Virus record (IMG/VR): IMGVR_UViG_3300017747_002675
Span: 15 to 64,014 of that record
Direction: 5' to 3' (one strand)
From: a virus
Taxonomy: Duplodnaviria; Caudoviricetes
Length of the DNA stretch: 64,000 nt
Shown: positions 1,678-19,605 of the stretch, one piece after another
Layout of the letters: each line of letters opens with the position of its first letter
Position numbering within the stretch: the stretch's first letter is position 1
Notes under the pieces: generated by a model
What the model saw: only the letters and a program-made list of their open reading frames with translations
Database searches by the model: none
Told to the model about the DNA's origin: nothing
Position numbers and translations under genes: made by a program

Positions 1678-2470
1678 GGCCGGGCTAATTACTGTAGTTG
1701 ACGGACTACTTGACGCCGAGTATTGTTCAAGATTCATTGAAAGACTTGCCACGGTGTGGGATAGGTCGCATCAAGGAAAGACACTGAGTGGAGTCAACTG
1801 GGCGACAAAGACGACCGAAGATATTCACGTCTCCGAGTACGCGTTTAGAGAGCTTGGGATCGAGTACGATTACAAGTGGCACGACCTTGAAATGCATTTT
1901 GCCAACGGTCTAATATCTGCGGTCTCGATGTACAAACAACAGTATAGACACCTAGACACGTGGACCGACATTGGCGACACCGGGTTTCAAGTGCAGAAGT
2001 ATCACAGAAACTTTGGATACTACCGTCCGCATGTTGACTCATTTCCATCGCATAACTCATCCGTCGCTAACAGAGTCTTGGCGTCGGTGATGTATCTAAA
2101 CGACGTTGAACATGGTGGAGAAACAAACTTTCCGTTGCATGGAGTAAAGGTGACCCCTCGCGCTGGACGAATAGTTCTATTCCCAGCAGTTTGGACTCAT
2201 CCTCATGAGTCATGCGTACCGATTAGCGGCGACAAATGGATCATTTCTACGTTTATCGTCAATGACTACTACGATGAAAACGGTCAAGCAGTTGATCAAA
2301 GTCAGCATCAGGAAGTTCATTCAAACGATGAACATTTCCACCCATCACCTGGGCATGACCACGATCATCCAATCGTTCTTTCGAATCAAAACGAGCTTCT
2401 TCAACGAGAGCATTATCATAAGTGCGTACAGTGCGCAAATAACGAAGCTCACGAATGCACAGTTCTATGA
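1646..2470 (+). CDS. 2OG-Fe(II) oxygenase, prolyl-4-hydroxylase-like, with His-rich C-terminal tail
   Basis: FQVQKY..YYRPHVD (HxD), VMYLNDVEHGGETNF, HPHES (distal His), GDKWIIS (2OG-binding Lys). Confidence 0.85.
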   Translation: MQIQVTQPAGEAGLITVVDGLLDAEYCSRFIERLATVWDRSHQGKTLSGVNWATKTTEDIHVSEYAFRELGIEYDYKWHDLEMHFANGLISAVSMYKQQYRHLDTWTDIGDTGFQVQKYHRNFGYYRPHVDSFPSHNSSVANRVLASVMYLNDVEHGGETNFPLHGVKVTPRAGRIVLFPAVWTHPHESCVPISGDKWIISTFIVNDYYDENGQAVDQSQHQEVHSNDEHFHPSPGHDHDHPIVLSNQNELLQREHYHKCVQCANNEAHECTVL

Positions 2471-3264
2471 AAACAGTATCGATAATTACGCCAACGTACA
2501 ACACTGACCCAGACGTCTTAGCAAGAACATGGGCGTCTCTTAAAAGACAGACATTTACAGACTGGGAGTGGGTGATATGGGATGACTCGACTGACTCTTC
2601 GGTAGGCGCGCAAATATATGGATTTGCTTCTGATGAACGTTTCAACATTCAAATGCACACTTCTCACGTGCATTCTGGGAATATTGGAAGAGTAAAAAGA
2701 AAAGCGTTTATGTCAGCGGAAGGTCGAATCTTACTAGAGCTCGACCACGACGACGAGCTAACGCCAGACTGTCTACATGAGGTTGTAGAAGCTTTTAACG
2801 ATGAGTCAGTTGGCTTCGTATACTCAGACTGGTGCGAGCTTCTTGCTGATGGACAGTCTGGTAGATACCCAGACGGATGGGCTTTCGGCTTCGGTTCTGA
2901 CTATTGGTCGGACGAGCACGGCGTCTGGGTGATGTCTGCACCCGAGATCAACCCGACGACCATGAAGCACATCGTGTCCGCGCCTAATCATGTTCGAGCG
3001 TGGCGTGCAGACGTGTATAGAAAGCTCAACGGGCATAATCCCGCATACGTTGTTGCAGATGATTATGAACTAGTTGTAAGAACGTTTCTTGAGACAAAGT
3101 TTTTTCACATCAAGAAGCTTCTATACAAACAGCACATCGGGCCGTCAACTGCCCAAAGACAAAGAAACGCACTAATTCAAGATCTCGTCGCTTCTATTTC
3201 AGCGGAATACAGCGATAGAATAGACGCAAGATTTGAAGAACTAAATAAGACGGAGATGAAGTAA
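2467..3264 (+). CDS. Glycosyltransferase family 2 (GT-A fold)
   Basis: VSIITPTYN, WVIWDDS, LELDHDDEL (DxD-like), ADDYELVVR; start inferred at ATG 2467 overlapping the upstream TGA. Confidence 0.85.
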   Translation: MKTVSIITPTYNTDPDVLARTWASLKRQTFTDWEWVIWDDSTDSSVGAQIYGFASDERFNIQMHTSHVHSGNIGRVKRKAFMSAEGRILLELDHDDELTPDCLHEVVEAFNDESVGFVYSDWCELLADGQSGRYPDGWAFGFGSDYWSDEHGVWVMSAPEINPTTMKHIVSAPNHVRAWRADVYRKLNGHNPAYVVADDYELVVRTFLETKFFHIKKLLYKQHIGPSTAQRQRNALIQDLVASISAEYSDRIDARFEELNKTEMK

Positions 3265-4912: not shown

Positions 4913-6154
4913 TTATTCTTGGTAGAAGTTCTTCTTCACGAAGTTACGGCTAAATCCCTTGTCGGTGTCCAAAAGCCACTCGCGTTCGCCGATCAACTCG
5001 CCTTGCGGTCCGTTTGGCTGGCCATTAAGGGCAGCGGCCGTTGCCTCGCCGATCCACGTTGCCGCCTGCACGGCAACTGCCTTACCCCACGTCGCCCCAA
5101 GAGCCGAGTAGTTGTTGACGCTTACAAATTCCCAGTCATCGGGAAGACCTTGAATTCTTGCGGCTTCTCTGTGGGTGATACGACGTGGCTGCGTCGGGTG
5201 AACGATGTGATCAAGAGCGCTGCCTGTCATAACGTGGCAGAACGAGTTCGCGTCCCAGCGGGCTGGAAGCGAGAATCCCATGTAGAAGTCATTCAGGCGA
5301 ATCTTCTCTTCCTTTGTCGCCCAAGACTGTGGGAACCTGTTTCCGTTCTTTTCGACGGCTTCCTTAAGAGCGACGTTCAAAGCGTCCATAGGCTTCCATC
5401 CTTCGTTTCCGAGGATGTCGAAGATCTCTTGAATTCTCTGTGACTCGAGGTTTGTTCTGTTCATGTGACCGTCGACGTAACCGTCTTGGTTTCTCAGGTT
5501 TGCAACAAACTTCGACGGCTCAGCGTTGTACTTCTGCTTGTTCCAGGTAATCTCAAGATTTTCGAGGTCACCGATCACGTCGATCATCTTAGGCATTTCC
5601 TTTGGCATCTCCGCGTGGGCGCCAAAAGGCATACCGCTTTCAACAGCTACCCAGAAGTAGCGCATACGATACGAGAAACCGCCAAGCATAAGGTTGTTGT
5701 GCTTGACGTGGTACAGGTCGTACTTCTTGTTTGACAGCTCCTCGAGCATGTCGCGGTATTGGTTCATCACCGCACGACCCTGCGTATACGCCTGCTGTAC
5801 GCATTCAAACACGACCATCTTTGGTTTGATTCTAGCGGCGTACTTCATGAACGCGCGTGTGTGCTCGTGCGCCTTTGCATCAGGACCTCTGTTTGCTGGA
5901 CCCGACCACAGCGACCATCCGGAGCACGGAGGACAACCAAGCACGACGTCGGCGCTCATGTCAGGCCAATCATTCGGATCTTCAGAAAAGAAAGACGTCC
6001 ACTCGTTACCGAGATGTTTTCTGTTTACCTCGGCGACTGGGTTTCCAAAGTTGAGAGTGCCAGTTCTGACCTTCATGTCGATGCCGGATCTTACGAAGCC
6101 AAGGCTCATAAAACCGGCGAGGCCGTTACAGTCGATAAACGTCGGATTGCTCAT
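4913..6154 (-). CDS. Divergent DNA (cytosine-5)-methyltransferase-fold protein
   Basis: Motif I variant CNGLAGF, IV GCPPCSGWS, VI variant FECV, VIII YRMRYF, IX REAARIQGLPD, X variant WGKAV. Confidence 0.8.
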   Translation of the reverse strand: MSNPTFIDCNGLAGFMSLGFVRSGIDMKVRTGTLNFGNPVAEVNRKHLGNEWTSFFSEDPNDWPDMSADVVLGCPPCSGWSLWSGPANRGPDAKAHEHTRAFMKYAARIKPKMVVFECVQQAYTQGRAVMNQYRDMLEELSNKKYDLYHVKHNNLMLGGFSYRMRYFWVAVESGMPFGAHAEMPKEMPKMIDVIGDLENLEITWNKQKYNAEPSKFVANLRNQDGYVDGHMNRTNLESQRIQEIFDILGNEGWKPMDALNVALKEAVEKNGNRFPQSWATKEEKIRLNDFYMGFSLPARWDANSFCHVMTGSALDHIVHPTQPRRITHREAARIQGLPDDWEFVSVNNYSALGATWGKAVAVQAATWIGEATAAALNGQPNGPQGELIGEREWLLDTDKGFSRNFVKKNFYQE

Positions 6155-6198: not shown

Positions 6199-6495
6199 TT
6201 ACTTAGAGACCTGACTATTTAGACCAACTTCGTAGCCGCATGCAGCGTACCCAGCGATGTCCGTCCACGTATCGGGTTGAAACCCAGAGTTAGATGCGTA
6301 ACGGGCCACCTTGACGGCAACCATCGCCATAGCGACGTCTTCGTTGGTGAACTCTCTACCAAAAAGAACACCCCATATTTTGGCGATTCTTCCAAAGTTA
6401 TCTTCAGGTCCCCCGTACTGCGTGTCACGCTGGCCCGAGATTATCTTCGCGGCAGTTTCAAGCATTTCCTGCCGCGGGCTCTTTTCGTTCTTCAT
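6199..6495 (-). CDS. DUF6378-like phage protein
   Basis: R..ML..A..II.G.R...YG.PEDNF..IA..W..DVAMAM...K.AR..DIAGYAACG pattern. Confidence 0.7.
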   Translation of the reverse strand: MKNEKSPRQEMLETAAKIISGQRDTQYGGPEDNFGRIAKIWGVLFGREFTNEDVAMAMVAVKVARYASNSGFQPDTWTDIAGYAACGYEVGLNSQVSK

Positions 6496-7269: not shown

Positions 7270-7506
7270 CTATATCGAAGCGATCTTTTTCTCTAGTTTA
7301 TACGCAGGGTGTCTGGCAGATGGTATGTGCGGAGTCTTGTAGTCTATAGTAGTGACGTAGATGTCGCCACCCTTGACTTCTACAACCTTAACAAGTCTTC
7401 CGTTATGAAGCCTGCCAGCATCTGTGCCATATGCGTCTTTTTTCACTCTCAAAACGTCGTCAATTTTTATCTCAAGAGACGAGGCATCTTCCCATAGGTC
7501 GTTCAT
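7270..7506 (-). CDS. Hypothetical protein
   Basis: Start inferred at ATG 7506 overlapping the upstream TGA (the ORF track extends to 7536). Confidence 0.55.
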   Translation of the reverse strand: MNDLWEDASSLEIKIDDVLRVKKDAYGTDAGRLHNGRLVKVVEVKGGDIYVTTIDYKTPHIPSARHPAYKLEKKIASI

Positions 7507-7988
7507 GACCCGCCTTTTGACGTCTGCTGCGGGCACGACGATTCAAGGCATGAGTTGACGTCATAATCGTCAAGAGCTCTGAAGCACTGGGTGCACTTGA
7601 CACCACTGTCAAGAACTCTGTAGCCGTTCTTTTGACGATCAGCGTTCTTCTGCATCTTAGCCAGATACTCAGCGTCAAGTTCTTCGTCCGTCGCGCCGGC
7701 GGCGCAAAGAATATTTGCCACAAAGTGCAGAACGTCGACGCATTCCTTGAGGATCTCGTGGCGATCGGCGTACGGGTCATCGTGCTGCCAAGGCTTCCAC
7801 GAGATGGCCTTACGGACCTCAGCGAGCTCGTCGTCGATCGCCAGCATGTTCCAGCGGATGTACTCGATAAGGTTTCTTAGATCGGCATGCTCGTCGCTAT
7901 GAAACGACGAGTAGTCGACGTTGTACACATCTGTTTGCAGTTGGCGAGTCTTCTCTAGCCACTTGCCAAATAGCACCTTGTCTGTCAC
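7503..7988 (-). CDS. All-alpha dCTPase/dUTPase (T4 gp56-like, MazG superfamily)
   Basis: DELAE..SWKPW..KECVDVLHF..N..Y..K..N..RQ..GY matches the gp56/dimeric dUTPase signature. Confidence 0.8.
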   Translation of the reverse strand: MTDKVLFGKWLEKTRQLQTDVYNVDYSSFHSDEHADLRNLIEYIRWNMLAIDDELAEVRKAISWKPWQHDDPYADRHEILKECVDVLHFVANILCAAGATDEELDAEYLAKMQKNADRQKNGYRVLDSGVKCTQCFRALDDYDVNSCLESSCPQQTSKGGS

Positions 7989-8998
7989 AGCCCTAATCCA
8001 TTCTTTAGTGTGTGTATAGTGTCTTGTGCGTTCATAAGAGCGCCTGTGTAGCGCTTCCGCTGTGCCACCGATAGTTCGTAGATATCAACGTAATCCATTT
8101 CCTCTACGTTTGCCGGCAGCAACGACCAAGAATCTCCAAGAATAGACGTAATCTTCCAGTCGCTTACTATTGGAGTTCTAGAGTTCATCGCCTGCGACAT
8201 TCTGTAGCTCCACCAAAGCATTCCGTCATCTTGTACGCTTAGAATCGACCCCTGAGACTCAAGCATCATCTTTTCTACGTCTGAGTCAGTTGATAGTCTG
8301 TTGCTTTTCATCTGAACAGCAGAATTACCAAGAGTATTTTGTAGAGACTTGAACCACCTTGAGTTCATGCTGTCGACTACCCAGCGTCTACTTCTTGACG
8401 TTGCTGTAGAGCTTATCTCAGACGAGATAAGAGCACTGTCTACTTCTACAGGAAGAACCGTAGAAACATCTGTGCATGGGAGCTGCGCCTTAACAACCTG
8501 AGAACCTACGAATGGGCTACTCGGATACAGAGTAACGTAGTCCCAGTGAGAAAAAAGAGTTCTTACGCCACCCAGCGCGGACTCAAGAATCTTTTTATTA
8601 CCAACTACGTCTGAATACTGCTTTCTACCAGAGTAGAACTGTTTGATGATGTCATCGTTATTTTTATCGATGGCGCGTAGGCTTGCGGCTATCTTAGCGG
8701 GTTCTGGAGCGTCTACAAATAGTCTAAGTCTGCTATCGTTTTTTAGCAGATTGATCATGTGCAGGATTCCATACGCCTTGTTCGCGGCGATACTAAGAAT
8801 AGGAGCCACACCGAGCAATACAGAGTCGTACTGATCGAGATCACTTTTCTTTAGCAAAACGCTTGGCTCTATAAAGTGCACGGCAACGTTGTTGTCTTTC
8901 AGCATTGAAGCAACGCAGCCTATGAAGCTCGCGCGGTGATGAAACGATCTATACGACGCCTGAGAGGCGGTCATACCAGAGATGGCAATTGACTTCAT
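7985..8998 (-). CDS. GT-B glycosyltransferase, T4 beta-glucosyltransferase-like (paralogue 2)
   Basis: DLDQYDSVLLGVAPILSI..KAYG and WWSYRMSQAMNSRTPIVSD parallel the adjacent gene and recalled BGT segments. Confidence 0.55.
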   Translation of the reverse strand: MKSIAISGMTASQASYRSFHHRASFIGCVASMLKDNNVAVHFIEPSVLLKKSDLDQYDSVLLGVAPILSIAANKAYGILHMINLLKNDSRLRLFVDAPEPAKIAASLRAIDKNNDDIIKQFYSGRKQYSDVVGNKKILESALGGVRTLFSHWDYVTLYPSSPFVGSQVVKAQLPCTDVSTVLPVEVDSALISSEISSTATSRSRRWVVDSMNSRWFKSLQNTLGNSAVQMKSNRLSTDSDVEKMMLESQGSILSVQDDGMLWWSYRMSQAMNSRTPIVSDWKITSILGDSWSLLPANVEEMDYVDIYELSVAQRKRYTGALMNAQDTIHTLKNGLGL

Positions 8999-10206
8999 TA
9001 CCTGCTACCGTCTGGGTTTATCCTCAGTCCCTTGTCTTCATTCAGCGCACGATGAACGATCCTGTTGCAGTGATCAACAAATGAATCGTATGTCGGCATG
9101 TGTGAACGAAGCGTGTCAGCCTGTGCGTTTGCCGCGCCAGCCAGATCGTCGTCTGACATCGACTCGACCTGCTTGATTGTCAACGAGTACGGCGCACCAA
9201 GCGGTTTGCCTTCTCCCTTGTCCGTAACAAGAATAGACTTCACCCTCGCGGCGTACATAAATCGACTTCTCCACCAACCGCAGCCGGCATGCGGGTACGG
9301 GGGCGAAAGAATTCCCCAGTATTCGTTGTAAAACGAAAGAACGTCTTCCTCTGTGTCAAAACGCTGTCCGCCGAACTTTCTAATTAGCTTTCGGCTTCCT
9401 ACGATCTCTACAGGCCAATCTGGATTCTTCTTTTCGAGCCAAGTGTCGTGCGGCACAAGCGCCCCGAGAACCCAGGCACGCTTTTTCTCAGACGGAGGGA
9501 GCGGCTCGGCTGACGACAGGATATTGAAGATCGTTGAACTTGGGTCTAGCGCCTCAATGCCGGCCATCTCGGCGGGCATTCTCTTGCGGACAAGTGAACG
9601 GTCGCCAAACGAGTACATTGGGCACACTGGAACCATGCCATGCGACCAGCGCTCTCCTAGAAGAGCCTGGGCTGTCTGCACCAACTGGCCTTCGTGCGCC
9701 TTGATGTTGTCGTCGTTGTCGTTAAAGAAGTATCTACCGACGGCGCACTTCTTTGCAGCGTCGGGATTAGCGGCAATGATTCTTTCCAGTGCCGCGTCAG
9801 CTTCAGCCTTTGAGAAGTACGTTGCGCCTTCGTCTCCACGAACCGATGACCCAGACAGAAGATACTTGTATAGGATTTCTGGGTGGCGAACAAGTGAGCG
9901 GCACGCGTTAAACACGGCGGCAAATTGCCAGTCATCAAAGAACCCGACAGCCGGGACGCCAGAGCTGAGCGCGTACAGCGCGCCCATAGCGCCCTGGCGG
10001 CCGTTAAGAGAGTTCAATGGTCCGAGGTTGACCCAGATTACGTCGTACGACGATAGATCTTCACCAGGTGTGACGCGTCGCCAATCTACCTGATGGCCGA
10101 CGCTTTCAAGAGCTTCAACGATCGACGCTGGCACGTCGATCTTTTTAATAGTTCTATGCTCTGTATTGATTTGAAGAGCTGTGAACCCTGTCATTAAAAT
10201 CTTCAT
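8998..10206 (-). CDS. GT-B glycosyltransferase, T4 beta-glucosyltransferase-like (paralogue 1)
   Basis: MKILMTG..GHQVD..DLSSYDVIWVN..LNSLNG..GFFDDW..WWRSRF.YAA....ILVTD resembles recalled BGT MKI..VD..YD..N..G..F.D and R.WE.MA....LID. Confidence 0.65.
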   Translation of the reverse strand: MKILMTGFTALQINTEHRTIKKIDVPASIVEALESVGHQVDWRRVTPGEDLSSYDVIWVNLGPLNSLNGRQGAMGALYALSSGVPAVGFFDDWQFAAVFNACRSLVRHPEILYKYLLSGSSVRGDEGATYFSKAEADAALERIIAANPDAAKKCAVGRYFFNDNDDNIKAHEGQLVQTAQALLGERWSHGMVPVCPMYSFGDRSLVRKRMPAEMAGIEALDPSSTIFNILSSAEPLPPSEKKRAWVLGALVPHDTWLEKKNPDWPVEIVGSRKLIRKFGGQRFDTEEDVLSFYNEYWGILSPPYPHAGCGWWRSRFMYAARVKSILVTDKGEGKPLGAPYSLTIKQVESMSDDDLAGAANAQADTLRSHMPTYDSFVDHCNRIVHRALNEDKGLRINPDGSR

Positions 10207-10232
10207 TGATTCATCCTTTGTGTGATACTCAA

Positions 10233-10270
10233 GTGGCCGCCCACGGCATTCTCATGCCGCGGGCGACCAC
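10233..10270 (-). terminator. 17-bp stem, GAGA-tetraloop hairpin downstream of the SSB gene
   Basis: Minus strand GTGGTCGCCCGCGGCAT-GAGA-ATGCCGTGGGCGGCCAC; both mismatches are G.U wobbles on this strand; weak U-tract. Confidence 0.7.
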
Positions 10271-10287
10271 CAAAGAACAGCAGCTCG

Positions 10288-10860
10288 TCAGAACGGAGCG
10301 GCTGGCGGTGTCTGTGCCTGAACCTCGGCAACAGGTGCCGGAGCGGGGGCAGGTGCCGGAGCCGGAGCAGCGGCAACAGGTGCGGGCGCCGGAGCAGGTG
10401 CCGGAGCCGGAGCGGGGGCAGGAGCTGCAGCCATAGGAGCCGGAGCGGAAGTTGTCGGAAGAGAGTAGTATGTCTTGATCTCGTTCTTCTTCTGACCCTG
10501 CCATGTACGGCTACCAACCTGCGCGCGGAAGCTACGACCCTTGAGGGTCTGCTCGATCTGAGCGTTCGTCGGATTGGTCGCGAAGTAGTTGCGATCAAGA
10601 CCGAGAGCGTTCATCTTGCGGAAGAAGATTCCGAGTGCGCTCGGGTTGTCTGTCGAGACGACGAGGTTGTCCCACACGAGACGCTTAGCGTGCGCCCCGG
10701 TTGTGACCTGTGCCTTCACGGCAAACATCGTCTTGCCCGTCTGAGTGGCCTTAGCCTGTGCCTCAACGATCACGAGGTCGTAGTCGCCGTCGGGCAGCGG
10801 GTCGTACCCACCGACGTCACCCGCCTCCTTGACGAGGTCACCCCAATTGAGTGTGCTCAT
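10288..10860 (-). CDS. Single-stranded DNA-binding protein (DUF669-like) with Ala-Pro tail
   Basis: YDPLPDGDY.L.I..A..K....GKTMF..G....R.VWDN..F pattern; ends PAPAPA..APF. Confidence 0.75.
   Translation of the reverse strand: MSTLNWGDLVKEAGDVGGYDPLPDGDYDLVIVEAQAKATQTGKTMFAVKAQVTTGAHAKRLVWDNLVVSTDNPSALGIFFRKMNALGLDRNYFATNPTNAQIEQTLKGRSFRAQVGSRTWQGQKKNEIKTYYSLPTTSAPAPMAAAPAPAPAPAPAPAPAPVAAAPAPAPAPAPAPVAEVQAQTPPAAPF
10320..10447 (-). repeat. Ala-Pro low-complexity coding repeat in the SSB linker
   Basis: Recurring caggtgccggagccggagc units. Confidence 0.8.
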
Positions 10861-10888
10861 TGTTTTTACCTATGTCTTTCTGTGTTGG

Positions 10889-11650
10889 TTACTTTGCTTG
10901 CTGATCCGGACGGGGTCCGAAAACGATATCGAGCATTCGTTCGACACTGAGGTCTCCCTGCTCGACGATCTTACCGAGGCGGCCTTGAACACGCTCGCCT
11001 GCCTCGTACTGGTTCGTGCGCTCGACGTACATGCGACGCGCCTTGTACGGCCCTTGTGTCGGGTCCGGGTTGTTGAACTCTTCGACGTTGATCGCGCCGA
11101 GGATGTCGTAGAAGTACGGAGCCTGAATGGCAAGCTGGCCTTGGAGGTACGGACGATACCGACCGTCCTGGCTCTGACGTGCCATGGCTGTCAGTACGAC
11201 TGCCTCGAGCGGGTTTGTTGCGTGCATCGTAAGGTCGCGGAGATCACGAAGCAGCGCACCCATGTGACGAAGAAGCTCGCCCCACTGTTGCATCTGCATC
11301 TGATTGGTTCCGGCGATGTTGTCCATGCACTTAACCTGCAACTCGGAGACCGAGTCGATGATCAGTGACTTGAACTGGTGGCGTCCGATCTGAAGCCACT
11401 GGTACGCCTTGAGAACGGTGTCGTACTCTGTGACGTTGACAACGCAGGTATCCCACGTCCCGTCAGCAGCCGGCGGCTCCTCACGCAACGGGTCCCAGTA
11501 CTTTACGTTGATAGGCAGGAATCTGTGCCCGCCTTCCACGTCCAGCATCAGACGCGGGTATGGTGCGGTGACTGCAAACGTCGATTTACCGACCTTTGAT
11601 TCACCGTACACCATAAGAGTAAGCGATCGCTGTACTCCACTCATGGTCAT
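10889..11650 (-). CDS. AAA/P-loop ATPase, Sak4/RecA-like recombination protein
   Basis: VYGESKVGKST (Walker A), LIIDSVSE (Walker B), lies between exonuclease and SSB. Confidence 0.8.
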   Translation of the reverse strand: MTMSGVQRSLTLMVYGESKVGKSTFAVTAPYPRLMLDVEGGHRFLPINVKYWDPLREEPPAADGTWDTCVVNVTEYDTVLKAYQWLQIGRHQFKSLIIDSVSELQVKCMDNIAGTNQMQMQQWGELLRHMGALLRDLRDLTMHATNPLEAVVLTAMARQSQDGRYRPYLQGQLAIQAPYFYDILGAINVEEFNNPDPTQGPYKARRMYVERTNQYEAGERVQGRLGKIVEQGDLSVERMLDIVFGPRPDQQAK

Positions 11651-12606
11651 TCACTTCCTTTCATCTCTGTTGATTCGTAATACTTATACGGATCACCTTG
11701 CGTATACAGCTCGGCGATCGCGTGCTCTGCAGCGCTACCGTCGTCAAACAACGGGCATACTGCAAAGAACTGGCACTTCCACTTGCAATCTCGGCTTGGC
11801 CGAGGATATGCAACGAAGTGATGATCTTGTCCTTCGTCCAATGCGTCTCGCACAGCGAGCATGTCGCCTACGGTACCATGAATTCTGTTCCAAAACGCTC
11901 TCAACGCAAAGGTGTTGTGTCTGACCTCGATCTGATCGTAGAACGGCGGCTTCGCGTTTGCGGTGCGCTTGACCTTCTTCAACATCGTGAAGATACCGCC
12001 TTCGCTGCGCTCGCCTTCTTTGTTCTGCGCCGCCTCGAGAAGCATGTACGTTAGGATCTGCTCGTTCATGTGAGCAAGAGCAGCAAACTCTGTGAACGAA
12101 CCGCCAACCGTCTTGAAGTCACGGAACATGCGCACACCGTCTGCTTTGCGACGAACACGCATGTCAAGTTTACCTTGAAGTTCTACCCTGCCCTCGAACA
12201 TCGGCATCGTGATGATTTCTTCTGTCGAGATCATCTCAAGATCGGCGTCGATGCCGTTCTCGTTGACCCAGTCGAGATATCCCTCGAGCATGATTCTACC
12301 GAGCTCGGCTTCTGTCTCGAGTTCCATCGTGTCGCGGAAGCTCTCTACAAGAGCCTTCTTGTCGAGCTGCACAAAGTGAGCGTATGCCTCGAGCAGTGGA
12401 GTTCCTGTTGAATAGTACATATCCAACGCCGAGTGAACGCGTGAGCCCAGCGCAAGAGCTCCAGTGAAGTTCTGAGTCTGTGGCTGAAGTCTACGATAGT
12501 AGTTTAACCACCACTTTCTTCTACAGTCCTTAAACGTTTGAATCTCAGAGTTCGAGATTCTCAGTGGCTCACGGCGGAGCTCTACCGGTGTTTCGTTGAT
12601 TGTCAC
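11647..12606 (-). CDS. PD-(D/E)XK (RecB/Cas4-like) exonuclease
   Basis: SNSEIQTFKDCRRKWW, GSRVHSAL, QGKLDM, RDFKT, CKWKCQFFAVC. Confidence 0.85.
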   Translation of the reverse strand: MTINETPVELRREPLRISNSEIQTFKDCRRKWWLNYYRRLQPQTQNFTGALALGSRVHSALDMYYSTGTPLLEAYAHFVQLDKKALVESFRDTMELETEAELGRIMLEGYLDWVNENGIDADLEMISTEEIITMPMFEGRVELQGKLDMRVRRKADGVRMFRDFKTVGGSFTEFAALAHMNEQILTYMLLEAAQNKEGERSEGGIFTMLKKVKRTANAKPPFYDQIEVRHNTFALRAFWNRIHGTVGDMLAVRDALDEGQDHHFVAYPRPSRDCKWKCQFFAVCPLFDDGSAAEHAIAELYTQGDPYKYYESTEMKGSE

Positions 12607-14405
12607 AGTGATCCTGTCTTGTCGTCTCTCAACATCTTGAGAAGTTGGTCTTTGTCTCGTACTATCTGTTCGAAGTTGTCAGCCTTTGTGTCTAGAACCT
12701 GAATCACACGTTCTTCGATCGTCCCATCGGTAACGTAGTCTGTGATCACGATGGAGTCATGGATCTCACTACCGATTCTGTGAACTCGGTCAAGAGCCTG
12801 CTTGTAATCAACCAGTGACCACGGGCGCTGAAGCATGATCAGCCTGCGAGCAGCAGTCAGTGTCACTCCGACTCCACCTGCCTGTGCAGTGAAAAGAATC
12901 CACTTAATTCTGCCATTCTGAAAATCATCGATGGCCTTTTGGCGCTCTTCCTCTGTCTGTGCGCCGGTAATCAATCCGTGAGGAATCTTCGCCTTTTCAA
13001 GGCGGGCACTAAGAAGTTCGATGAGCTGTCGAGACACCGCACACACGGCGACAGAATCATCTCCAAAGTCGCCGTTTTCGATGTCGTCCATCAGCGCATC
13101 TACCTTGCACGACGGTTCCGCTAGTTTGACGGCAATCTCTCCAGTAAACTCGTCTACGTCGATCGCTGCGTATGAACTTGCGAACTGCAACAACCGTGTA
13201 GCCTGAGTTAGTGGGCTCGGTGCTGTTAGCGCTTCACCGCTTTCCAACTGAGCGATCATGACGTCGCGCATCTGCTCGTACGCCTTTTTCTGCTTTGTAG
13301 ACATTTCTACGTCGCGGCGCTCCTTGATCACAGGTGGCAACCATGGAAGAACCTTTGCCTTGAGCATTCTGCGCATACGCGGGTTGATAGCTGCGTAGAA
13401 TTCGTCGTTCATGTGCGGCTTGACGCCAAGCACCATCATTCCACCGAACGCGTTCAACATCGTGTCAACCATACGGTCAATCCAACGAGTCTTGCTAGGC
13501 CATTCGTTTGGCGACAGCCAGTGCAGAATCGGCCACAGGTCGAGGACGTTGTTGGCGATAGGTGTGCCAGTGAGCGCAAAACGGATGTCTGCGTTTCCTG
13601 TTGCCGCCCAGAGCGCGCGTGTCTGCTTGCTCTTTGGTTCCTTTGAACGGTGAATCTCGTCAGCAACTACTGACTTAAAGTCGATCTTATTGAGTTCACG
13701 GATGTGCACCTCACAGCGGTTTTCCGAAACCTTCTCATCATGACCACCGCATTCAACGCATCGCGCCAACGCAACAGATCCGTAACTGGCAAGACGCGAG
13801 TGAGTACGTAATGACTCCCAGTTGATGACGTATACGTCAACGTCTTCTTCGGCGAATTGCTTACGGCGCTGTGTCGCTGATCCGCTGATAACCTGAACGT
13901 TTACTCCAGGCCACCACATCGCGAACTCGCGCTTCCAGTTTTTCTTCAAAGTGTTCGGACACACGATGAGCGCAGGGAACACTTCCTCGCCTCTGTCCTT
14001 CAGTTCTTTCAATGCGCGGATCGTCTGCGCTGTCTTCCCGAGGCCCGGCTCATCAGCAAGAAGAGCGCGACGCGCAGCTGCAAGGAACTTCACTCCAGCG
14101 CGCTGGTGCGGGAACAACGCCTCGTCACCGTCGGCTGTCTCAAGCTCACGTAGTGCGTTGCACGGAGCAACGCGCGTGTTGAATTCGTTTGTAGCCCATT
14201 CTGTAAGTCTCGGTCCGATACGCAGTTCGGTCTTAAACACCGACCGAAGAGCGAGGCATGTTGACCAGCCAAGTGGCGCACGCCACGCTTTGTCAGCAGC
14301 CGACCATGTCGCGCCCGGGATACCTTTGCATAGCTCTTTGTATCGCCATTCGGTGTCGATACGGATATGCTCACCCGAATCACTAAGTTCTACATCAACT
14401 GGCAC
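12603..14405 (-). CDS. SNF2-family DNA helicase
   Basis: LFPHQRAG, LLADEPGLGKT, ADEIH, LTGTP, QAGGVGVTLTAA, QALDRVHRIG. Confidence 0.9.
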   Translation of the reverse strand: MPVDVELSDSGEHIRIDTEWRYKELCKGIPGATWSAADKAWRAPLGWSTCLALRSVFKTELRIGPRLTEWATNEFNTRVAPCNALRELETADGDEALFPHQRAGVKFLAAARRALLADEPGLGKTAQTIRALKELKDRGEEVFPALIVCPNTLKKNWKREFAMWWPGVNVQVISGSATQRRKQFAEEDVDVYVINWESLRTHSRLASYGSVALARCVECGGHDEKVSENRCEVHIRELNKIDFKSVVADEIHRSKEPKSKQTRALWAATGNADIRFALTGTPIANNVLDLWPILHWLSPNEWPSKTRWIDRMVDTMLNAFGGMMVLGVKPHMNDEFYAAINPRMRRMLKAKVLPWLPPVIKERRDVEMSTKQKKAYEQMRDVMIAQLESGEALTAPSPLTQATRLLQFASSYAAIDVDEFTGEIAVKLAEPSCKVDALMDDIENGDFGDDSVAVCAVSRQLIELLSARLEKAKIPHGLITGAQTEEERQKAIDDFQNGRIKWILFTAQAGGVGVTLTAARRLIMLQRPWSLVDYKQALDRVHRIGSEIHDSIVITDYVTDGTIEERVIQVLDTKADNFEQIVRDKDQLLKMLRDDKTGSL

Positions 14406-14434
14406 TCAATACCTCTTGTCGTTCGTTATCTGTC

Positions 14435-14443
14435 ACTGTATCA
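14435..14443 (-). promoter_or_regulatory. Candidate extended -10 promoter TGATACAGT
   Basis: TGn-TAnnnT in the intergenic gap upstream of the helicase. Confidence 0.35.
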
Positions 14444-14491
14444 CATACTAAGCGGAAATGTCTTCACGCATGCAATTTTTTCTTAGTATGA

Positions 14492-14956
14492 CTACTCAAG
14501 CAGCCTAGTTGGCGCCCAGCCTGTCTTTACTAAGCGCAGAAGCCCGTGTCTAATCGCGTCAAGCGCGTGACCTTCTCCACCGCGGTACCAGTAGTCTAGT
14601 TTCTTTAGAGCCGTGTTGTCAAACATTCTTTTTGCGTCAGATGGAGACTGAAACAGCAACGTATTTGGGTCTATGCCGTTGCTAAGCATGAGATACTTGA
14701 GAATACCGATCTGCTCGAGGCTGAACGGCGCCTGTGAGTTTTTCACCGTCTGAGCGTTGATCGTAAACCTCTCGCAGACAATTTCTAGCTTCGCGCCCGT
14801 CTCTTTGGCCGTCTGAATGGCCTCAAGTATCGGCTTATGGTATTCTTCCATAAGAAACTCCCCGGAGGCCAAGAGGCGCGGTTCTAGGCCACTCTCATGG
14901 GAAATGACGGCGATACCGCTCTTCTTCCCCGGGTCAACGGCAAGAATGAGCCTCAT
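14492..14956 (-). CDS. RuvC-like Holliday junction resolvase
   Basis: ILAVDPGKKSG, VCERF, HALDAIRH. Confidence 0.7.
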   Translation of the reverse strand: MRLILAVDPGKKSGIAVISHESGLEPRLLASGEFLMEEYHKPILEAIQTAKETGAKLEIVCERFTINAQTVKNSQAPFSLEQIGILKYLMLSNGIDPNTLLFQSPSDAKRMFDNTALKKLDYWYRGGEGHALDAIRHGLLRLVKTGWAPTRLLE

Positions 14957-15273
14957 GTCCAGACCACCCTAGATACTCCAGACCTTAGTAGTATACTTTC
15001 GCACTTCTTGCACGGCTTTGACGGGGCTGGTGACCCGTCTGCCGCAATTCTGGCAACGTAGACGTTAGAACCAACGGCCAGGTTGCCTGCCGCGGTGATA
15101 GCAGCAAACTCAGCATGAACATGAGACACTCGCCACGCGGTCTTCGGATCGCCGATCTTTTTGTTTGTCGACGTTGAGACGATTTTTCCGTTTCTTACAA
15201 CGACGCATCCGTGCTTATGGCGGCACTTGCTCTTCGCTGCGACCCCAAGCGCCATTTCAAGGTAGCGATTCAT
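14953..15273 (-). CDS. Short zinc-dependent cytidine/dCMP deaminase-fold protein
   Basis: HAEFAAI and PCKKC, KHGCVVVRNGKIVS. Confidence 0.75.
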   Translation of the reverse strand: MNRYLEMALGVAAKSKCRHKHGCVVVRNGKIVSTSTNKKIGDPKTAWRVSHVHAEFAAITAAGNLAVGSNVYVARIAADGSPAPSKPCKKCESILLRSGVSRVVWT

Positions 15274-17096
15274 CAGTACTTGTCGCCCCAGGTCTCAAGC
15301 GGCCCGTCTACGTCTGCGGTAAGAGGTACGGCCCAGCCCTCGGTTGTGGTCATGCACTGCTTGACAAGTTGCTTGATCTCCTCAGCGTCCTCACGGGGCG
15401 CCTGTAGCACGATTTCGTCGTGCACCGGAACGATCAGCATCTCTGTAAGATCTGCCTGGTCAAGTTTTACAAGATTTGACTTGAACACCTCGGCAGCTCC
15501 ACCTTGAATGAGGTAGTTCACCAGCGTGTAGACTCTGCCTTCGTCGCATGGCAGTCTACGACCTGTCCAGGTGTAGACGTACCCCTGACCTTCGGCCTTC
15601 AGTCTTCTCATCCCGATGTCTTCTATCTGTCTCTGGAAGTAGGACATTCCTGGGAATCTGTTATCGAACGCGTCCGATGTCTGCTTCATCTGTATCTCGG
15701 CGACTCCTGCGGTTAACGCCTGCTTTGCGACGCCGGCTCCGTAAAGACGACCGTAGATCATGCTCTTGATGAGACCTCGACGCTTGTCAGACTTCTGCAT
15801 CGTCGGGTCATTGTACACCTCACGGCCGATCTCGGTGAACGGGTCAGAGCCTGTAGCATCGGCGAGGTGGAACAGATTGATTAGGTTGCTGTCGTTTGAC
15901 AGACTGGCGAACATGCGGAACTCGACCTGGTCAAGGTCGCTCGTGATAATCACGTGATCCTCGTCCTTGGGAATGAACGCGCGTCGAACTACGTCGTCTC
16001 CCTTAGGCAACGTCTGTAGCGCCGGATTGGTGATCGACATGCGTGATGTACGGGCGCCCAACGTCTTAACAGATGGGTGAACTATCCCGTCGATAGACTC
16101 CGTAAGAAAGTTAGAGAAATACGTTCCGGCAAGTTTGTCAGCCTTACGTTGCTTGAGAACCGTGTCGGCAAGTGCCGATACTTCAGTGTTTCCGTCTCTC
16201 TGAAGAATCTTTAATTGATCCTTAGTGCATGACTTTTGCCCAGTCGGCGTGAACTCGGTGATCTCAGCACCGAGCGACTCAAACAGGTGAACAAGTTGAA
16301 CGTTGCTGGTAATAGACACACCACCATACGTGTCGCGCGCCCACTTCTTTACAGACTCGGTATACGCGGTAAGTTCGTCGTACTTCCTCTGCGAGTAGTC
16401 AAGATCTACGCGCGCACCGTTGATCTCCATGCGGGTGACGATCTTGCGCGTCGCCATCTCAAGTTCGTACGCGCGCTGATACGGACCTTCTGGTCCGCAC
16501 TGCTTGTAAAACATTTCCCACAGCCGCGTGGTTAGAACACAGTCAAGCGCGCCGTATGACCAATATGGTGTGAAGTTCGTCGGGACAGTGCCCCACGTCC
16601 ACCCGTTCTTGACAAGTTCAACATCAAGCGTGTCCTGTAGAGCAACGGCCCTGCTGTCGATATGAAGAGCCGCGAGGCGCTTAAGAGCACCAGAGCCCAG
16701 CGGGTCAACTACGTGAGCCATGATCATCGTGTCGTGAGCGCGGTGCCACGGAATATCCCACCGAGACTGAACGTCAAACCAACGAGCCTCGAACGCAATG
16801 TTGTGGCAGATAAGTGGTCCGTCAAACTTGTCCATCGCCTCGTAGAAAACGCCCGACCATTCGTTCCAGGGAATAGACCAGCCTTGCTCCCCGTCACCAA
16901 CCTGCACGAGGCGAAGACGGCCATGCCAAGGAGACAGCGCGTGATCTCTTGGGTTGCCTGGTAGCTCACCAGTTTCTGTGTCTACTGAGATAGCGTTGTA
17001 CGGTCTTCTCTGACCAAGCCAATGAAGAAAGTTCTGCGCCTTCTCGACGCTGTCTACGAGATGAAGTTGTACGTTTGAAAGGTCGTTGTCACTCAA
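15273..17096 (-). CDS. polA: DNA polymerase family A (3'-5' exonuclease plus polymerase, no 5'-3' exonuclease)
   Basis: VDTET, HNIAFE, HDTM, LDCV exonuclease motifs; DLDQVE (A), KSMIYGRLYG (B), VHDE (C). Confidence 0.92.
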   Translation of the reverse strand: MSDNDLSNVQLHLVDSVEKAQNFLHWLGQRRPYNAISVDTETGELPGNPRDHALSPWHGRLRLVQVGDGEQGWSIPWNEWSGVFYEAMDKFDGPLICHNIAFEARWFDVQSRWDIPWHRAHDTMIMAHVVDPLGSGALKRLAALHIDSRAVALQDTLDVELVKNGWTWGTVPTNFTPYWSYGALDCVLTTRLWEMFYKQCGPEGPYQRAYELEMATRKIVTRMEINGARVDLDYSQRKYDELTAYTESVKKWARDTYGGVSITSNVQLVHLFESLGAEITEFTPTGQKSCTKDQLKILQRDGNTEVSALADTVLKQRKADKLAGTYFSNFLTESIDGIVHPSVKTLGARTSRMSITNPALQTLPKGDDVVRRAFIPKDEDHVIITSDLDQVEFRMFASLSNDSNLINLFHLADATGSDPFTEIGREVYNDPTMQKSDKRRGLIKSMIYGRLYGAGVAKQALTAGVAEIQMKQTSDAFDNRFPGMSYFQRQIEDIGMRRLKAEGQGYVYTWTGRRLPCDEGRVYTLVNYLIQGGAAEVFKSNLVKLDQADLTEMLIVPVHDEIVLQAPREDAEEIKQLVKQCMTTTEGWAVPLTADVDGPLETWGDKY

Positions 17097-17574
17097 CGTC
17101 GTCGTCCTTGACTACTGTTAGTTCTATCTTACACTTCTTTAGATACTCAAACACGTCGTACGGTCTACGGTGGAGATCTGCTGATCGCAGTCTACAAACT
17201 ACTCGAGCAAGTCCGGAGTTCGTTATCAGTTTAGCGCACTGCATACACGGAGCGCTCGTCACGTATAGTGTCCCGCCGGCAACACTCGAACGGTCGACGT
17301 ACAGTAGAGCGTTCGCCTCAGCGTGAATCGCCGGGCACGCATCGTACATGTTGTCGAGCGGCGCCTCTCCTCGTGCTCTTGGGCACCACTGGTTGCACGT
17401 CCCAGATTCAGGCCAATCGGCGGCAGGTCCGTTGTACCCAGTGGCGCATATTCTTTGTTCTCTAGAAACGATTACGGCGCCAAGTTGCGCGCGAGAACAA
17501 CGAGACCTAAGGCCAATAGTTTCGGCTATGGCAAGCCATGTTTCATCCCAGGACGGTCTTGTATCGTTCATCAA
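17089..17574 (-). CDS. dCMP deaminase
   Basis: RP.WDE.WL.IA, ATGYNG, HAEANAL, PCMQCAKLI. Confidence 0.88.
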   Translation of the reverse strand: MMNDTRPSWDETWLAIAETIGLRSRCSRAQLGAVIVSREQRICATGYNGPAADWPESGTCNQWCPRARGEAPLDNMYDACPAIHAEANALLYVDRSSVAGGTLYVTSAPCMQCAKLITNSGLARVVCRLRSADLHRRPYDVFEYLKKCKIELTVVKDDDVE

Positions 17575-17762
17575 TCTTCGTCATCTTCGTCGTCTTCTAT
17601 CGAGGCCTCTGCGATGCCTGTGATTAGCATTTTTGCAATAAGCTCTAGCCCGTCACGTCTAGAAAAACCAGCTTCACGTAGAGTGAGGTACATCTCGTGC
17701 ATGCTTACCGCGGCTTCCTTCATCGGTGAGGAATAGTCGTCGTCCCAGTCGCCGCTCATCAC
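17571..17762 (-). CDS. Small acidic hypothetical protein
   Basis: Coupled by ATGA overlaps on both sides. Confidence 0.7.
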   Translation of the reverse strand: MMSGDWDDDYSSPMKEAAVSMHEMYLTLREAGFSRRDGLELIAKMLITGIAEASIEDDEDDED

Positions 17763-18619
17763 GCCTCTTTTCTTTTGTTCTTTTCGATCGCCGTAATCAT
17801 AGAACTAGCATACCATCGTTCCTGCGGAGAAAGAGAATCTAGTATGCTATGATCGTTCACCGAGTTAAGAATTGCTATCGCTGAATCCTTTACGTCGTCC
17901 CACGAGTCACCGTAGATCGCCGGAACGTTTTCAACGTTATCAGTCTTCTTGAGGTTATCCGCAGCCGCGTAATTTGATTCGTAAATGTGAAGTGACCCAA
18001 CATGATGAGCGTATGTGCCAGGCTCAACAGCAAGCACGCTGCACATCGCAAGTTGAACCCTTGTAAATTGGAAGAAGTCATACGCTGCACCCAACCACAC
18101 ATCGTTTGAGCGCATGTATACGCTCATGTTTAGTTTGTTATCTCTGATCCTAAACTGATGAAGAACAGTGCAGGGGTAGTCTCTCTTGCCTTCTTGGTTG
18201 TCGTATTCCGGGTTCCAAATAGTGACAACTGCCTGCCGAGTGTCTCGGTCGTTTTTCAGCTTTTCAATGGCGTAGTCGTACTGACCGTTTGTTCTACGTC
18301 CATACGCTCCATGAAATATTCCGTTGTCTTCAGCGTAGTTCTTAAACTGCGGACCGACGGCGATGACAGTTTCTGGAGTGCTTACTCCACCAAGAAGCTG
18401 ACACGCCTCAACGGCACCGATGCCCGGCACTGTGCCGCGGCCAACACCGAGTGGGAGCGCGGCAAAGATGTTGTCAATGTGAATGACGGCATCTTCTATC
18501 TCTAAGGTGTTGAAGCCGCGTGGAGAAGCCGGTCTGCCGTTGTCAAGAACGTGCTTGACAAGATCGACGTACCCGTTGACAGCGTCCTCGATGTGAATGG
18601 ATTTTACGGAAGTATCCAA
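17759..18619 (-). CDS. Thymidylate-synthase-fold pyrimidine-modifying enzyme, probable dCMP hydroxymethylase/methylase
   Basis: DTRQAV..WN, YPC (C150), MRSNDVWLGAAYD (D181 where ThyA has Asn177), SLHIYE. Confidence 0.8.
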   Translation of the reverse strand: MDTSVKSIHIEDAVNGYVDLVKHVLDNGRPASPRGFNTLEIEDAVIHIDNIFAALPLGVGRGTVPGIGAVEACQLLGGVSTPETVIAVGPQFKNYAEDNGIFHGAYGRRTNGQYDYAIEKLKNDRDTRQAVVTIWNPEYDNQEGKRDYPCTVLHQFRIRDNKLNMSVYMRSNDVWLGAAYDFFQFTRVQLAMCSVLAVEPGTYAHHVGSLHIYESNYAAADNLKKTDNVENVPAIYGDSWDDVKDSAIAILNSVNDHSILDSLSPQERWYASSMITAIEKNKRKEA

Positions 18620-19605
18620 TGCGTGTACCTTTCATCTCTATTGTAGACAAAACTTGTGATTGCTTGGCCATACTCAAAGCGATCTTGATGATGAAATCTT
18701 CTGACGTACTGCGGGTGCGGGAGAACAACGTACCTGTCGTCGTTCAAGCCACACTGGCGAATTTTCTTTTCTGCCAGTCTCCCAAGTGCTACGATCTTTG
18801 GCTGACCAAGAACTTCTAAAAGATCGTTCAGCGAGTCTTCTGAAAAGTCATCTGAGTTGATGATACCGCAGGCTCGCCAACTTGCTTCAGGGAGTGACGA
18901 AAGAAGGTAGTCACCTGAGTTCCCGTTGATAGGCATGAACGGAAGAATCGTCTCGGCTGGGTCATTTCTTTTGTCGCCGATAAGAAGCGAATGCGGCCAC
19001 CTCGGTCCGATGTACGTCGGAAACTTAGAAAGTGGTTCAGCTGCCTTTGATTTTTTTGTCGCGGCGTCAATTATAGCGTCTGCGGCGTACTTAACGTAGT
19101 TTATTCCGTCTGGTATCGTGACCTTTAGCTCTACACCATACGCCTTGTTGTACCCAAACTCGTACCTATCGAGAATGCCGGCAAGTTCATGCGCATCGAC
19201 AAAGTCATCACCGCGGTTATTGATTCTTTCGGTGATGACCTCGAGAGGCTGGTAGACCCAGAACTGCGCAACACCTCGGGACTCGAGGAATAGCTCTACC
19301 CAGCGCCAACCGGCTACCCCAAGAAGACCGTACTCGTCCTTGCACGTCTCGGGGCGCTTGATCGGCGCGTATGTTACCTCTCCCCAGTGCCACCTATCTG
19401 ACACGGCAACACGACCCGTCCAGTCGATGTTTTCAATGGCTACAGCGTACTCGTGAAGAGCCCACCTGCGGGTAAGCTCTTCAGGCTTGCCTTTGTGAAA
19501 CTCTTCTACGTCGGCGCCAGGCCTAGCTCGCTTAAGTTGGCTTTTGATCTCTTCTGCAAGGGTGCTCTTACCTGAAGCGTCTGCACCTTCTAAAACTATG
19601 AACAT
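18604..19605 (-). CDS. dNMP (thymidylate) kinase fused to a UDG-superfamily-like domain
   Basis: N-terminal EGADASGKST and SDRWHWGE; C-terminal LLIGD..SGDYL..PKIVALGRLA..LPHPQY. Confidence 0.7.
   Translation of the reverse strand: MFIVLEGADASGKSTLAEEIKSQLKRARPGADVEEFHKGKPEELTRRWALHEYAVAIENIDWTGRVAVSDRWHWGEVTYAPIKRPETCKDEYGLLGVAGWRWVELFLESRGVAQFWVYQPLEVITERINNRGDDFVDAHELAGILDRYEFGYNKAYGVELKVTIPDGINYVKYAADAIIDAATKKSKAAEPLSKFPTYIGPRWPHSLLIGDKRNDPAETILPFMPINGNSGDYLLSSLPEASWRACGIINSDDFSEDSLNDLLEVLGQPKIVALGRLAEKKIRQCGLNDDRYVVLPHPQYVRRFHHQDRFEYGQAITSFVYNRDERYTHWILP

Follow-up and report, generated by a model that had tools for sequence, protein, structure and literature searches.

The window analysed here, a 64,000-nucleotide stretch forming nearly the whole of the 64,014-bp IMG/VR viral record IMGVR_UViG_3300017747_002675 (estimated completeness of the record ~48%), carries a gene module that probably provides the phage DNA with a base derived from 5-hydroxymethylcytosine (5hmC). 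Phage T4 puts sugar on the 5hmC of its DNA and escapes host nucleases. An earlier, sequence-only reading of the window had proposed cytosine hypermodification of this T4 type, and our analysis supports the proposal computationally, as a gene was found for each of the proposed steps and the residues that decide the reading agree with it. With less confidence, we also favour a glycosylated form of the 5hmC, made by the two glycosyltransferases (GTs) of the module, as suggested by residue signatures and structural models. The strategy is a known one, following textbook T4 logic, and the instance is new; the non-orthologous parts are the kinase and the sequence family of the GTs. The genes on which the argument rests are the following:

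7503..7988, minus strand: gp56-like all-alpha nucleoside triphosphate (NTP) pyrophosphatase, candidate deoxycytidine/deoxyuridine triphosphatase (dCTPase/dUTPase); PF08761 (dUTPase_2), 3.6e-12
7985..8998, minus strand: GT-B glycosyltransferase "GT337", paralogue of GT402 and candidate second DNA glycosyltransferase; AlphaFold2 predicted local distance difference test (pLDDT) 92.5
8998..10206, minus strand: GT-B glycosyltransferase "GT402", candidate DNA 5hmC glycosyltransferase; AlphaFold2 pLDDT 96.2, fold like that of T4 beta-glucosyltransferase (BGT)
15273..17096, minus strand: family A DNA polymerase (PolA) with 3'-5' exonuclease; PF00476, 7e-56
17089..17574, minus strand: predicted deoxycytidine monophosphate (dCMP) deaminase of ComEB/Cd type; PF00383 (dCMP_cyt_deam_1), 1e-18
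17571..17762, minus strand: conserved 63-aa open reading frame (ORF) between synthase and deaminase, in most relatives at 41-100% identity
17759..18619, minus strand: ThyA-fold pyrimidine hydroxymethylase, predicted gp42-type (dCMP to 5-hydroxymethyl-dCMP); PF00303 (Thymidylat_synt), 1.3e-22
18604..19605, minus strand: nucleotide monophosphate kinase with a ~185-aa N-terminal P-loop domain resembling YorR and thymidylate kinases (TMPK) and a ~140-aa C-terminal domain; PHROG 761

All six ORFs named in the sequence-only reading are present on the minus strand at the positions it gave, and the phage polymerase it had claimed is the family A enzyme of the list. The kinase and the ThyA homologue overlap by 16 nt, stop over start, and the ThyA homologue, the 63-aa ORF and the deaminase follow each other with 4-nt overlaps. 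GT402 and GT337 overlap by 1 nt, and the stop of GT337 shares the letters GTGA (7985-7988) with the GTG start of the gp56-like gene. For comparison we used 80 IMG/VR loci fetched with the ThyA homologue, hereafter the relatives. The kinase, the ThyA homologue, the deaminase and PolA were found in essentially all of them, with 42-100% protein identity, and both GT genes and the gp56-like gene in every locus whose flank extended as far as a sugar cassette of the window's type. The tight overlaps and the conservation in relatives indicate that the genes of the module are real. The closest named genome belongs to an uncultured phage of a Shanghai lake, Actinomycetia phage DSL-LC01, which shares the gene order of the window and is 77% identical in DNA over the helicase/nuclease block; the remoter kin are cultured Gordonia phages of the GodonK group. 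An actinobacterial host is supported by a WhiB gene of the window and by these kin.

The substrate and product of ThyA homologues can be predicted from a small number of residues, for which rules in Escherichia coli ThyA numbering were set out in 2026 by the groups of Weigele and Peters (PMC13326640). Replacement of Asn177 by Asp changes the substrate from deoxyuridine monophosphate (dUMP) to dCMP (PMC13326640; also PMC8670742). A bulky Leu143 shuts out water and leads to a methyl product, Asp or Glu at 143 indicates hydroxymethylation, and Asn in place of Asp169 is the mark of the flavin-dependent 5-hydroxy-dCMP synthases, found in all tested synthases of 5-hydroxycytosine (5hoC) (PMC13326640). 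In an alignment that also held E. coli ThyA, T4 gp42, SPO1 gp29 and the DSL-LC01 and GodonK proteins, the window protein has Asp143, Cys146, Thr147, Met165, Arg166, Ser167, Asn168, Asp169, Gly173 and Asp177. The last of these lies in an AAYD motif that aligns with FRND (D179) of T4 gp42, while SPO1 gp29 and E. coli ThyA have Asn; Asp143 is part of an RDYPC motif and resembles the SDFMC of T4. Among the 12 residues listed within 6 Å of C5 (PMC13326640), 10 are identical to those of gp42, the two mismatches being Phe for Trp80 and an indel at 142. The catalytic Cys (E. coli C146) is kept, as are R21, R166, S167, H207 and Y209, the ligands of phosphate and ribose. BLASTP against T4 gp42 gave 33% identity over 125 aa (E 2e-15) with the residue register unchanged, and the gp42-type signature is invariant across the 80 relatives. 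The protein thus has the features of the dCMP-type, gp42-like synthase for which it had first been taken.

Other enzymes of the ThyA fold agree less well. The top PDB sequence match of the synthase is MilA, a hydroxymethylase of cytidine monophosphate (CMP) whose preference for ribose rests on Ala176 and Lys133 (PMC5175136); at the corresponding positions, Ser167 and Arg126 of E. coli ThyA, the window protein has Ser (in RSND) and Arg (in DTRQ) in place of the Ala and Lys of the MilA type. The Asn of the 5-hydroxy-dCMP synthases was likewise not found, since RSND retains Asp169 in the window and in the 80 relatives. Judged by these marker residues, the homologue is unlikely to be a thymidylate (dTMP) or 5-hydroxy-dCMP synthase or to act on CMP. 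In the complete DSL-LC01 and GodonK genomes we found neither a second ThyA homologue nor a ThyX, from which we conclude that the window homologue is not the phage's dTMP synthase. The closest characterised kin over the full length are the SPO1 gp29-type dUMP hydroxymethylases (31% identity over 216 aa), and as they are closer than gp42, the cytosine specificity may have arisen separately from that of T4. In its C-terminal 60 residues the protein is related to no characterised member.

The remaining nucleotide enzymes fit around this synthase. The gp56-like dCTPase of the sequence-only reading turned out to be a true homologue of T4 gp56: residues 11-123 of the 161-aa protein match gp56 in BLASTP with 29% identity (E 2e-13), and the acidic metal-binding helices (DDE..E, E..E..D) are kept, IDDELAEV aligning with IDDEFREL and EILKECVDVLHF with EIKFELVDIFHF. 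The gene was present in all five further relatives searched (5/5), including those with different sugar cassettes. The dCMP deaminase, also anticipated, has the zinc site of the cytidine deaminase (CDA) fold intact, with HAEANAL (HAE) and PCMQC (PCxxC), and occurs in 80/80 relatives; the 63-aa ORF preceding it had no family match in the family and PHROG searches. A second CDA-fold deaminase of 106 aa lies at 14953-15273 (minus strand) between the RuvC-like and PolA genes, has HAE and PCxxC intact and is found in a subset of relatives only, being absent from DSL-LC01.

The kinase had been assigned the role of T4 gp1, which calls for a correction. It is a nucleotide kinase, belonging to PHROG 761 "thymidylate kinase" (7e-17), and its N-terminal ~185 residues match SPbeta YorR (2axp) in a profile comparison (profile A3, 1.2e-9), with matches also to thymidylate kinases. 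No homology with gp1 was found, hhalign giving a probability of 0.6% with the P-loop alone aligned, and the "gp1 role" is thus an analogy. The 5hoC phage RL38J1 also uses a TMPK-like kinase (PMC13326640). The C-terminal ~140 aa (18607-19023, minus strand) are kept in 42/42 full-length freshwater relatives, and the GodonK kinase is shorter and does not have the domain. This part matches the uracil-DNA glycosylase (UDG) superfamily PF03167 at 17.7 bits, below the 24.3 cut-off, and 7 of 22 members match weakly; a PDB profile search with the kinase ORF matched the N-terminal kinase only and gave no match for the C-terminal domain. Its motifs (G-D...PF...G.SG..L, HPQ) may resemble those of family 4 UDGs. 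A UDG-like domain on a deoxynucleoside monophosphate kinase would be unusual.

GT402 and GT337 are distant paralogues, with 25% identity (E 2e-7) and a WW..R motif in common. Neither had a match in Pfam (even at E 10) or NCBIfam or an informative match in PHROGs, and their earlier description as BGT-like could therefore not have come from a family match. We built AlphaFold models from alignments of 60 (GT402) and 39 (GT337) homologues and compared them with the PDB using VIA-align. The best match of both was T4 BGT, with Z 19.4 over 306 aligned residues for GT402 and Z 18.0 over 299 for GT337, the rmsd being 4.0 in each case. It was followed by SenB (Z 16.2 for GT337 and 17.8 for GT402), T4 alpha-glucosyltransferase (AGT; 15.1 and 17.2) and then generic GT4 enzymes, so that in these models the lead of BGT appears modest. 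In MAFFT add-alignments, at ~10% identity, Asp92 of GT402 (invariant in 60/60 family members) falls under the catalytic Asp100 of BGT, as does the invariant Asp96 of GT337 (39/39), and Arg266 of GT337 falls under Arg269. The description as BGT-like stands for the fold and fails for the family, since both proteins lie outside the BGT sequence family (GT63, PF09198); PF09198 was seen on 40% of the members of one related Atlas cluster, which we regard as a lead only. The GT402 family is large, with 604 clusters at 50% identity, and viruses make up all of its nearest Atlas clusters. GT337 evolves much faster than the genes around it, with 32-42% identity between lineages that have ~80% in the helicase. 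Isoelectric points, used as a proxy for DNA binding, were uninformative (8.4 for GT337, 6.2 for GT402, 5 to 10 for the families). We infer solely from gene linkage that the acceptor of the two enzymes is 5hmC in duplex DNA.

This linkage extends beyond the window. GodonK has the genes in the order GT402-like (gp118), GT337-like (gp116), two more GTs, gp56-like (gp112), C5-cytosine DNA methyltransferase (C5-MTase) homologue (gp110) and WhiB, and this block mirrors the window, while its synthase, kinase, deaminase and PolA form a block 25 kb away. The same genes are found in the cultured Gordonia phages GodonK, Phendrix, Sixama, Forza and GMA2. Outside the actinophages, homologues of GT402 were found in three unrelated phages, namely Erwinia phage FBB1, Aeromonas phage 60AhydR15PP and the Manatee Spring siphovirus MW202657, and in each of them (3/3 checked) a ThyA homologue shows the gp42 signature in full. 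FBB1 and 60AhydR15PP, which belong to the Straboviridae, have a canonical ThyA besides the gp42-type enzyme. In FBB1 (Tevenvirinae; locus L097:5937-8062) the unannotated GT402 homologue comes directly after a UDP-galactopyranose mutase, and the homologue of 60AhydR15PP (locus L103:4001-5077) is likewise unannotated. By sequence, both phages are candidates for a non-glucose sugar on a modified cytosine.

In the relatives the GT genes occupy a slot between a DUF669 gene and the gp56-like gene, which we found in at least three forms. Type A, that of the window, consists of GT402 and GT337. Type B holds a 415-aa protein, an APH-like kinase, an HAD-like protein and a sugar-phosphate nucleotidyltransferase, and type C, seen in DSL-LC01, is a UDP-galactopyranose mutase between two GTs. 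The replaced cassettes are at:

L020:18168-20697, L077:12662-13147 and L069:11100-14081: cassettes of types B and C in relatives

PHROGs gave no names to the type B proteins, and the GT402 profile had no significant hhalign match to the 415-aa protein. Phage routes to nucleoside diphosphate (NDP) sugars beside DNA glycosyltransferases are a pattern known from RB69, DLP3 and RL38J1 (PMC13326640), and the cassettes of types B and C are similar to such clusters.

Put together, the genes suggest the following route, one part of which would precede replication and the other follow it. The gp56 homologue would hydrolyse dCTP, and also dUTP, to the monophosphate, depleting dCTP and feeding dCMP into the pathway. 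The ThyA homologue would transfer a folate-derived methylene onto C5 of dCMP and, through attack by water, yield 5-hydroxymethyl-dCMP, which the YorR/TMPK-like kinase would convert to the diphosphate and the host NDP kinase to 5-hydroxymethyl-dCTP for incorporation by the phage family A polymerase. Part of the dCMP would be turned by the deaminase into dUMP for host thymidylate synthesis. After replication, both BGT-fold GT-B enzymes would glycosylate the 5-hydroxymethyl group, with an NDP-sugar of the host as donor; the presence of two may reflect two sugars added in series, or different anomers or sequence contexts. We infer every catalytic activity in this scheme, and likewise that DNA is the acceptor, which sugar is used and how far cytosine is replaced.

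A number of observations weigh against such a route. They begin with a further gene linked to the module:

4913..6154, minus strand: C5-cytosine DNA methyltransferase homologue; PF00145, 5.7e-23, PPC catalytic motif kept

This homologue is 37% identical to GodonK gp110, with the same gene order, and was found in 4 of 5 relatives searched; the one without it is 90% complete and has all other genes of the module. A linked C5-MTase with an intact PPC motif implies that some of the DNA it meets has unsubstituted C5, and its conservation fits poorly with full replacement of cytosine; incomplete replacement, action on host DNA or another role are possible explanations. GGCC is the sole clearly under-represented 4-bp palindrome in the window (190 against 267 expected, observed/expected 0.71, z -4.7), the others being near expectation, and even such a mild depletion would be unexpected were all cytosines shielded, although palindrome counts say nothing conclusive about modification. 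No gene for NDP-sugar synthesis was found in the window. The kinase lies outside the gp1 family and its substrate is suggested only by the gene overlap, the dCTP specificity of the gp56 homologue is not readable from its sequence, and the modified base itself is a prediction from homology, signatures, folds, linkage and conservation. Finally, both GTs appear to be without a sequence-level link to BGT, with no Pfam match and, for the family profile of GT402 (A2), no significant hhalign match to T4 BGT (probability 5%), and generic GT-B enzymes score just 1.5-2 Z lower, so that their acceptor could be something other than DNA.

This last point leads to the alternative that survives best, in which 5hmC DNA is made and the GT-B enzymes act elsewhere, on a polymer of the host envelope, a protein of the virion or a small molecule, leaving bare or otherwise modified 5hmC in the DNA. 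SenB, PimA and MshA are within ~2 Z units of BGT, and in GodonK two more annotated GTs lie next to these genes. The authors of the DSL-LC01 paper, the only one our search found to mention DSL-LC01, GodonK or their kin, read the UDP-galactopyranose mutase as a cell-wall auxiliary gene and the methyltransferase as another auxiliary gene, and they proposed no DNA modification (PMC10611076). Against this, the GTs are inside a replication and nucleotide module, translationally coupled to the gp56 homologue, and that linkage is kept from freshwater phages to Gordonia phages. The viral character of the family's top Atlas clusters, the gp42-signature synthases alongside in three unrelated phages and the alignment of the invariant Asp with the catalytic base of BGT point the same way, and we think a non-DNA acceptor unlikely.

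The C5-MTase would be more easily accommodated if the modified base were thymine. The deaminase would then turn 5-hydroxymethyl-dCMP into 5-hydroxymethyl-dUMP and glycosylated 5-hydroxymethyluracil (5hmU) would replace T, leaving cytosine free for the methyltransferase. The deaminase is indeed only one small ORF from the synthase in all relatives, SPO1 gp29-type enzymes are among the nearest full-length kin of the synthase, and the complete relatives have no phage dTMP synthase. However, T4 itself pairs gp42 with a dCMP deaminase, the known 5hmU phages use an Asn177 enzyme directly on dUMP, as in SPO1 gp29, and one 90%-complete relative with all the other genes has no C5-MTase. In metaviromes, moreover, the combination of ThyA-Asp177, a deaminase and an NTP pyrophosphohydrolase is enriched on contigs with APOBEC3A-resistant cytosines (PMC8670742), which ties this gene set to cytosine modification. 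A 5hmU genome thus seems distinctly improbable.

We give a similarly slim, if anything slightly slimmer, chance to a different C5 product from dCMP, whether one with a precedent, such as 5-methyl-dCMP (Xp12) or 5-hydroxy-dCMP (RB69), or a novel one. The rules used above rest on few marker residues, the identity to the gp42 core is 33%, the C-terminal 60 residues are unlike those of characterised members and Trp80 is replaced by Phe. On the other hand, Asp143 is no bulky hydrophobic residue and speaks against a methyl product, which is also disfavoured because GTs need a hydroxyl acceptor, and Asp169 is not the Asn of the tested 5hoC synthases. Ordinary nucleotide supply, with a dTMP synthase, a dTMP kinase, a dUTPase and a deaminase near unrelated auxiliary GTs and DNA that is canonical save for methylation, agrees with the GenBank annotation of DSL-LC01 and GodonK and with the ready assembly of the phage from Illumina metagenomes, but we consider it very improbable, as a ThyA homologue with Asp for Asn177 is not expected to make dTMP, its whole active site matches gp42 and not ThyA, and Straboviridae in which this GT family occurs have a canonical ThyA as well as the gp42-type enzyme.

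Returning to glycosylated 5hmC as the preferred reading, we put forward an extension of it that, taken as a whole, is speculative and rather doubtful. The DNA coating might have two layers and be swappable. In the first, 5hmC made before replication would be decorated by a fast-evolving, virus-only pair of GT-B enzymes, and relatives might swap this cassette for NDP-sugar pathways, leading to galactofuranose or employing the kinase, HAD-like protein and nucleotidyltransferase, and so acquire lineage-specific sugars. In the second, the C5-MTase and the UDG-like domain fused to the kinase might handle cytosines and uracils that escape replacement.

If the preferred reading is true, a group of actinophages widespread in lakes would be protected against restriction enzymes and probably against some CRISPR systems, and their DNA would behave differently in methods that assume canonical cytosine. 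The group is common in freshwater metagenomes, as the 80 IMG/VR loci attest. Its pathway has been hidden by gene names, the GenBank labels in DSL-LC01 and GodonK being thymidylate synthase, thymidylate kinase, dUTPase and hypothetical proteins. The cultured Gordonia relatives make the prediction of modified DNA directly testable, and the virus-only GT402 family would be a new source of DNA glycosyltransferases.

The window has a GC content of ~50%, and nearly all genes from 3.4 kb onward are on the minus strand. The only sizeable plus-strand cluster, at 236-3264, holds a tail-collar protein, an ORF, a 2-oxoglutarate (2OG)-Fe(II) oxygenase (PF13640) and a GT2 glycosyltransferase, and at the corresponding position DSL-LC01 encodes a tryptophan halogenase and a GT. 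We rejected a TET/JBP route to the modified base, as the sole 2OG oxygenase of the window (1646-2470, plus strand) sits with the tail-collar and GT2 genes, outside the module. A DUF6378 protein is encoded at 6199-6495 (minus strand), between small ORFs and the methyltransferase gene, and the name "phosphofructokinase" that PHROGs gives to its families seems doubtful for a protein of 98 aa. Three very long consecutive ORFs of 1,483, 1,932 and 3,841 aa occupy 40650-63773 (minus strand). The sequencing runs that hold the window, 20/20 of them freshwater or lake DNA metagenomes in which it occurs as contigs, come from 15 studies, and no RNA holder is listed; most of the stretch is in only ~7 runs.

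The sequence-only reading knew of no characterised pathway of this form in actinophages. This was borne out for GodonK-like and freshwater actinophages, for which our literature search found no paper on cytosine hypermodification, and has to be qualified by Brevibacterium phage LuckyBarnes, published with a similar set of a "dCMP hydroxymethylase" and two GTs. We rejected LuckyBarnes as an instance of the same system, as its enzyme has Asn177 and its GTs are unrelated to GT402 and GT337. By the diagnostic residue, the product of LuckyBarnes gene 41 (L096:6456-8009), with Asn at ThyA position 177, looks like a dUMP hydroxymethylase, and that phage may therefore modify thymine and not cytosine.

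In comparison with the glucosyl-hydroxymethylcytosine pathway of T4, the window follows the same logic with mostly the same folds, sharing gp56, a gp42-type synthase, a deaminase and BGT-fold GTs. It differs in that the kinase is YorR/TMPK-like with an extra domain and the GTs are two paralogues outside the BGT sequence family in place of an AGT/BGT pair. Unlike T4, its relatives DSL-LC01 and GodonK have neither a canonical ThyA nor ThyX, and the relatives have a long tail with a tape measure protein; the window also has a C5-MTase linked to the module, a family A polymerase and an actinobacterial host. The 5hoC systems of RB69, DLP3 and RL38J1 (PMC13326640) similarly combine a dCMP-acting ThyA homologue, a nucleotide kinase and DNA glycosyltransferases, and NDP-sugar genes of their type, including UDP-galactopyranose mutase, are found in relatives of the window and not in the window itself. 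Their synthases have D169N, make 5hoC and use a flavin cofactor, whereas the window enzyme keeps Asp169, for which reason we expect a hydroxymethyl and not a hydroxyl handle. SPO1 gp29 shares Asp143 and a divergent C-terminus with the window synthase but is a dUMP enzyme with Asn177 and Asn147, in place of which the window synthase has Asp177 and Thr147 like gp42. The nearest likeness is to DSL-LC01 and GodonK (Godonkavirus), with a homologous kinase, ThyA(Asp177), deaminase and PolA and a second block in the same order from the GT402-like gene to WhiB, GodonK differing by its two extra GTs and by the shorter kinase without the C-terminal domain.

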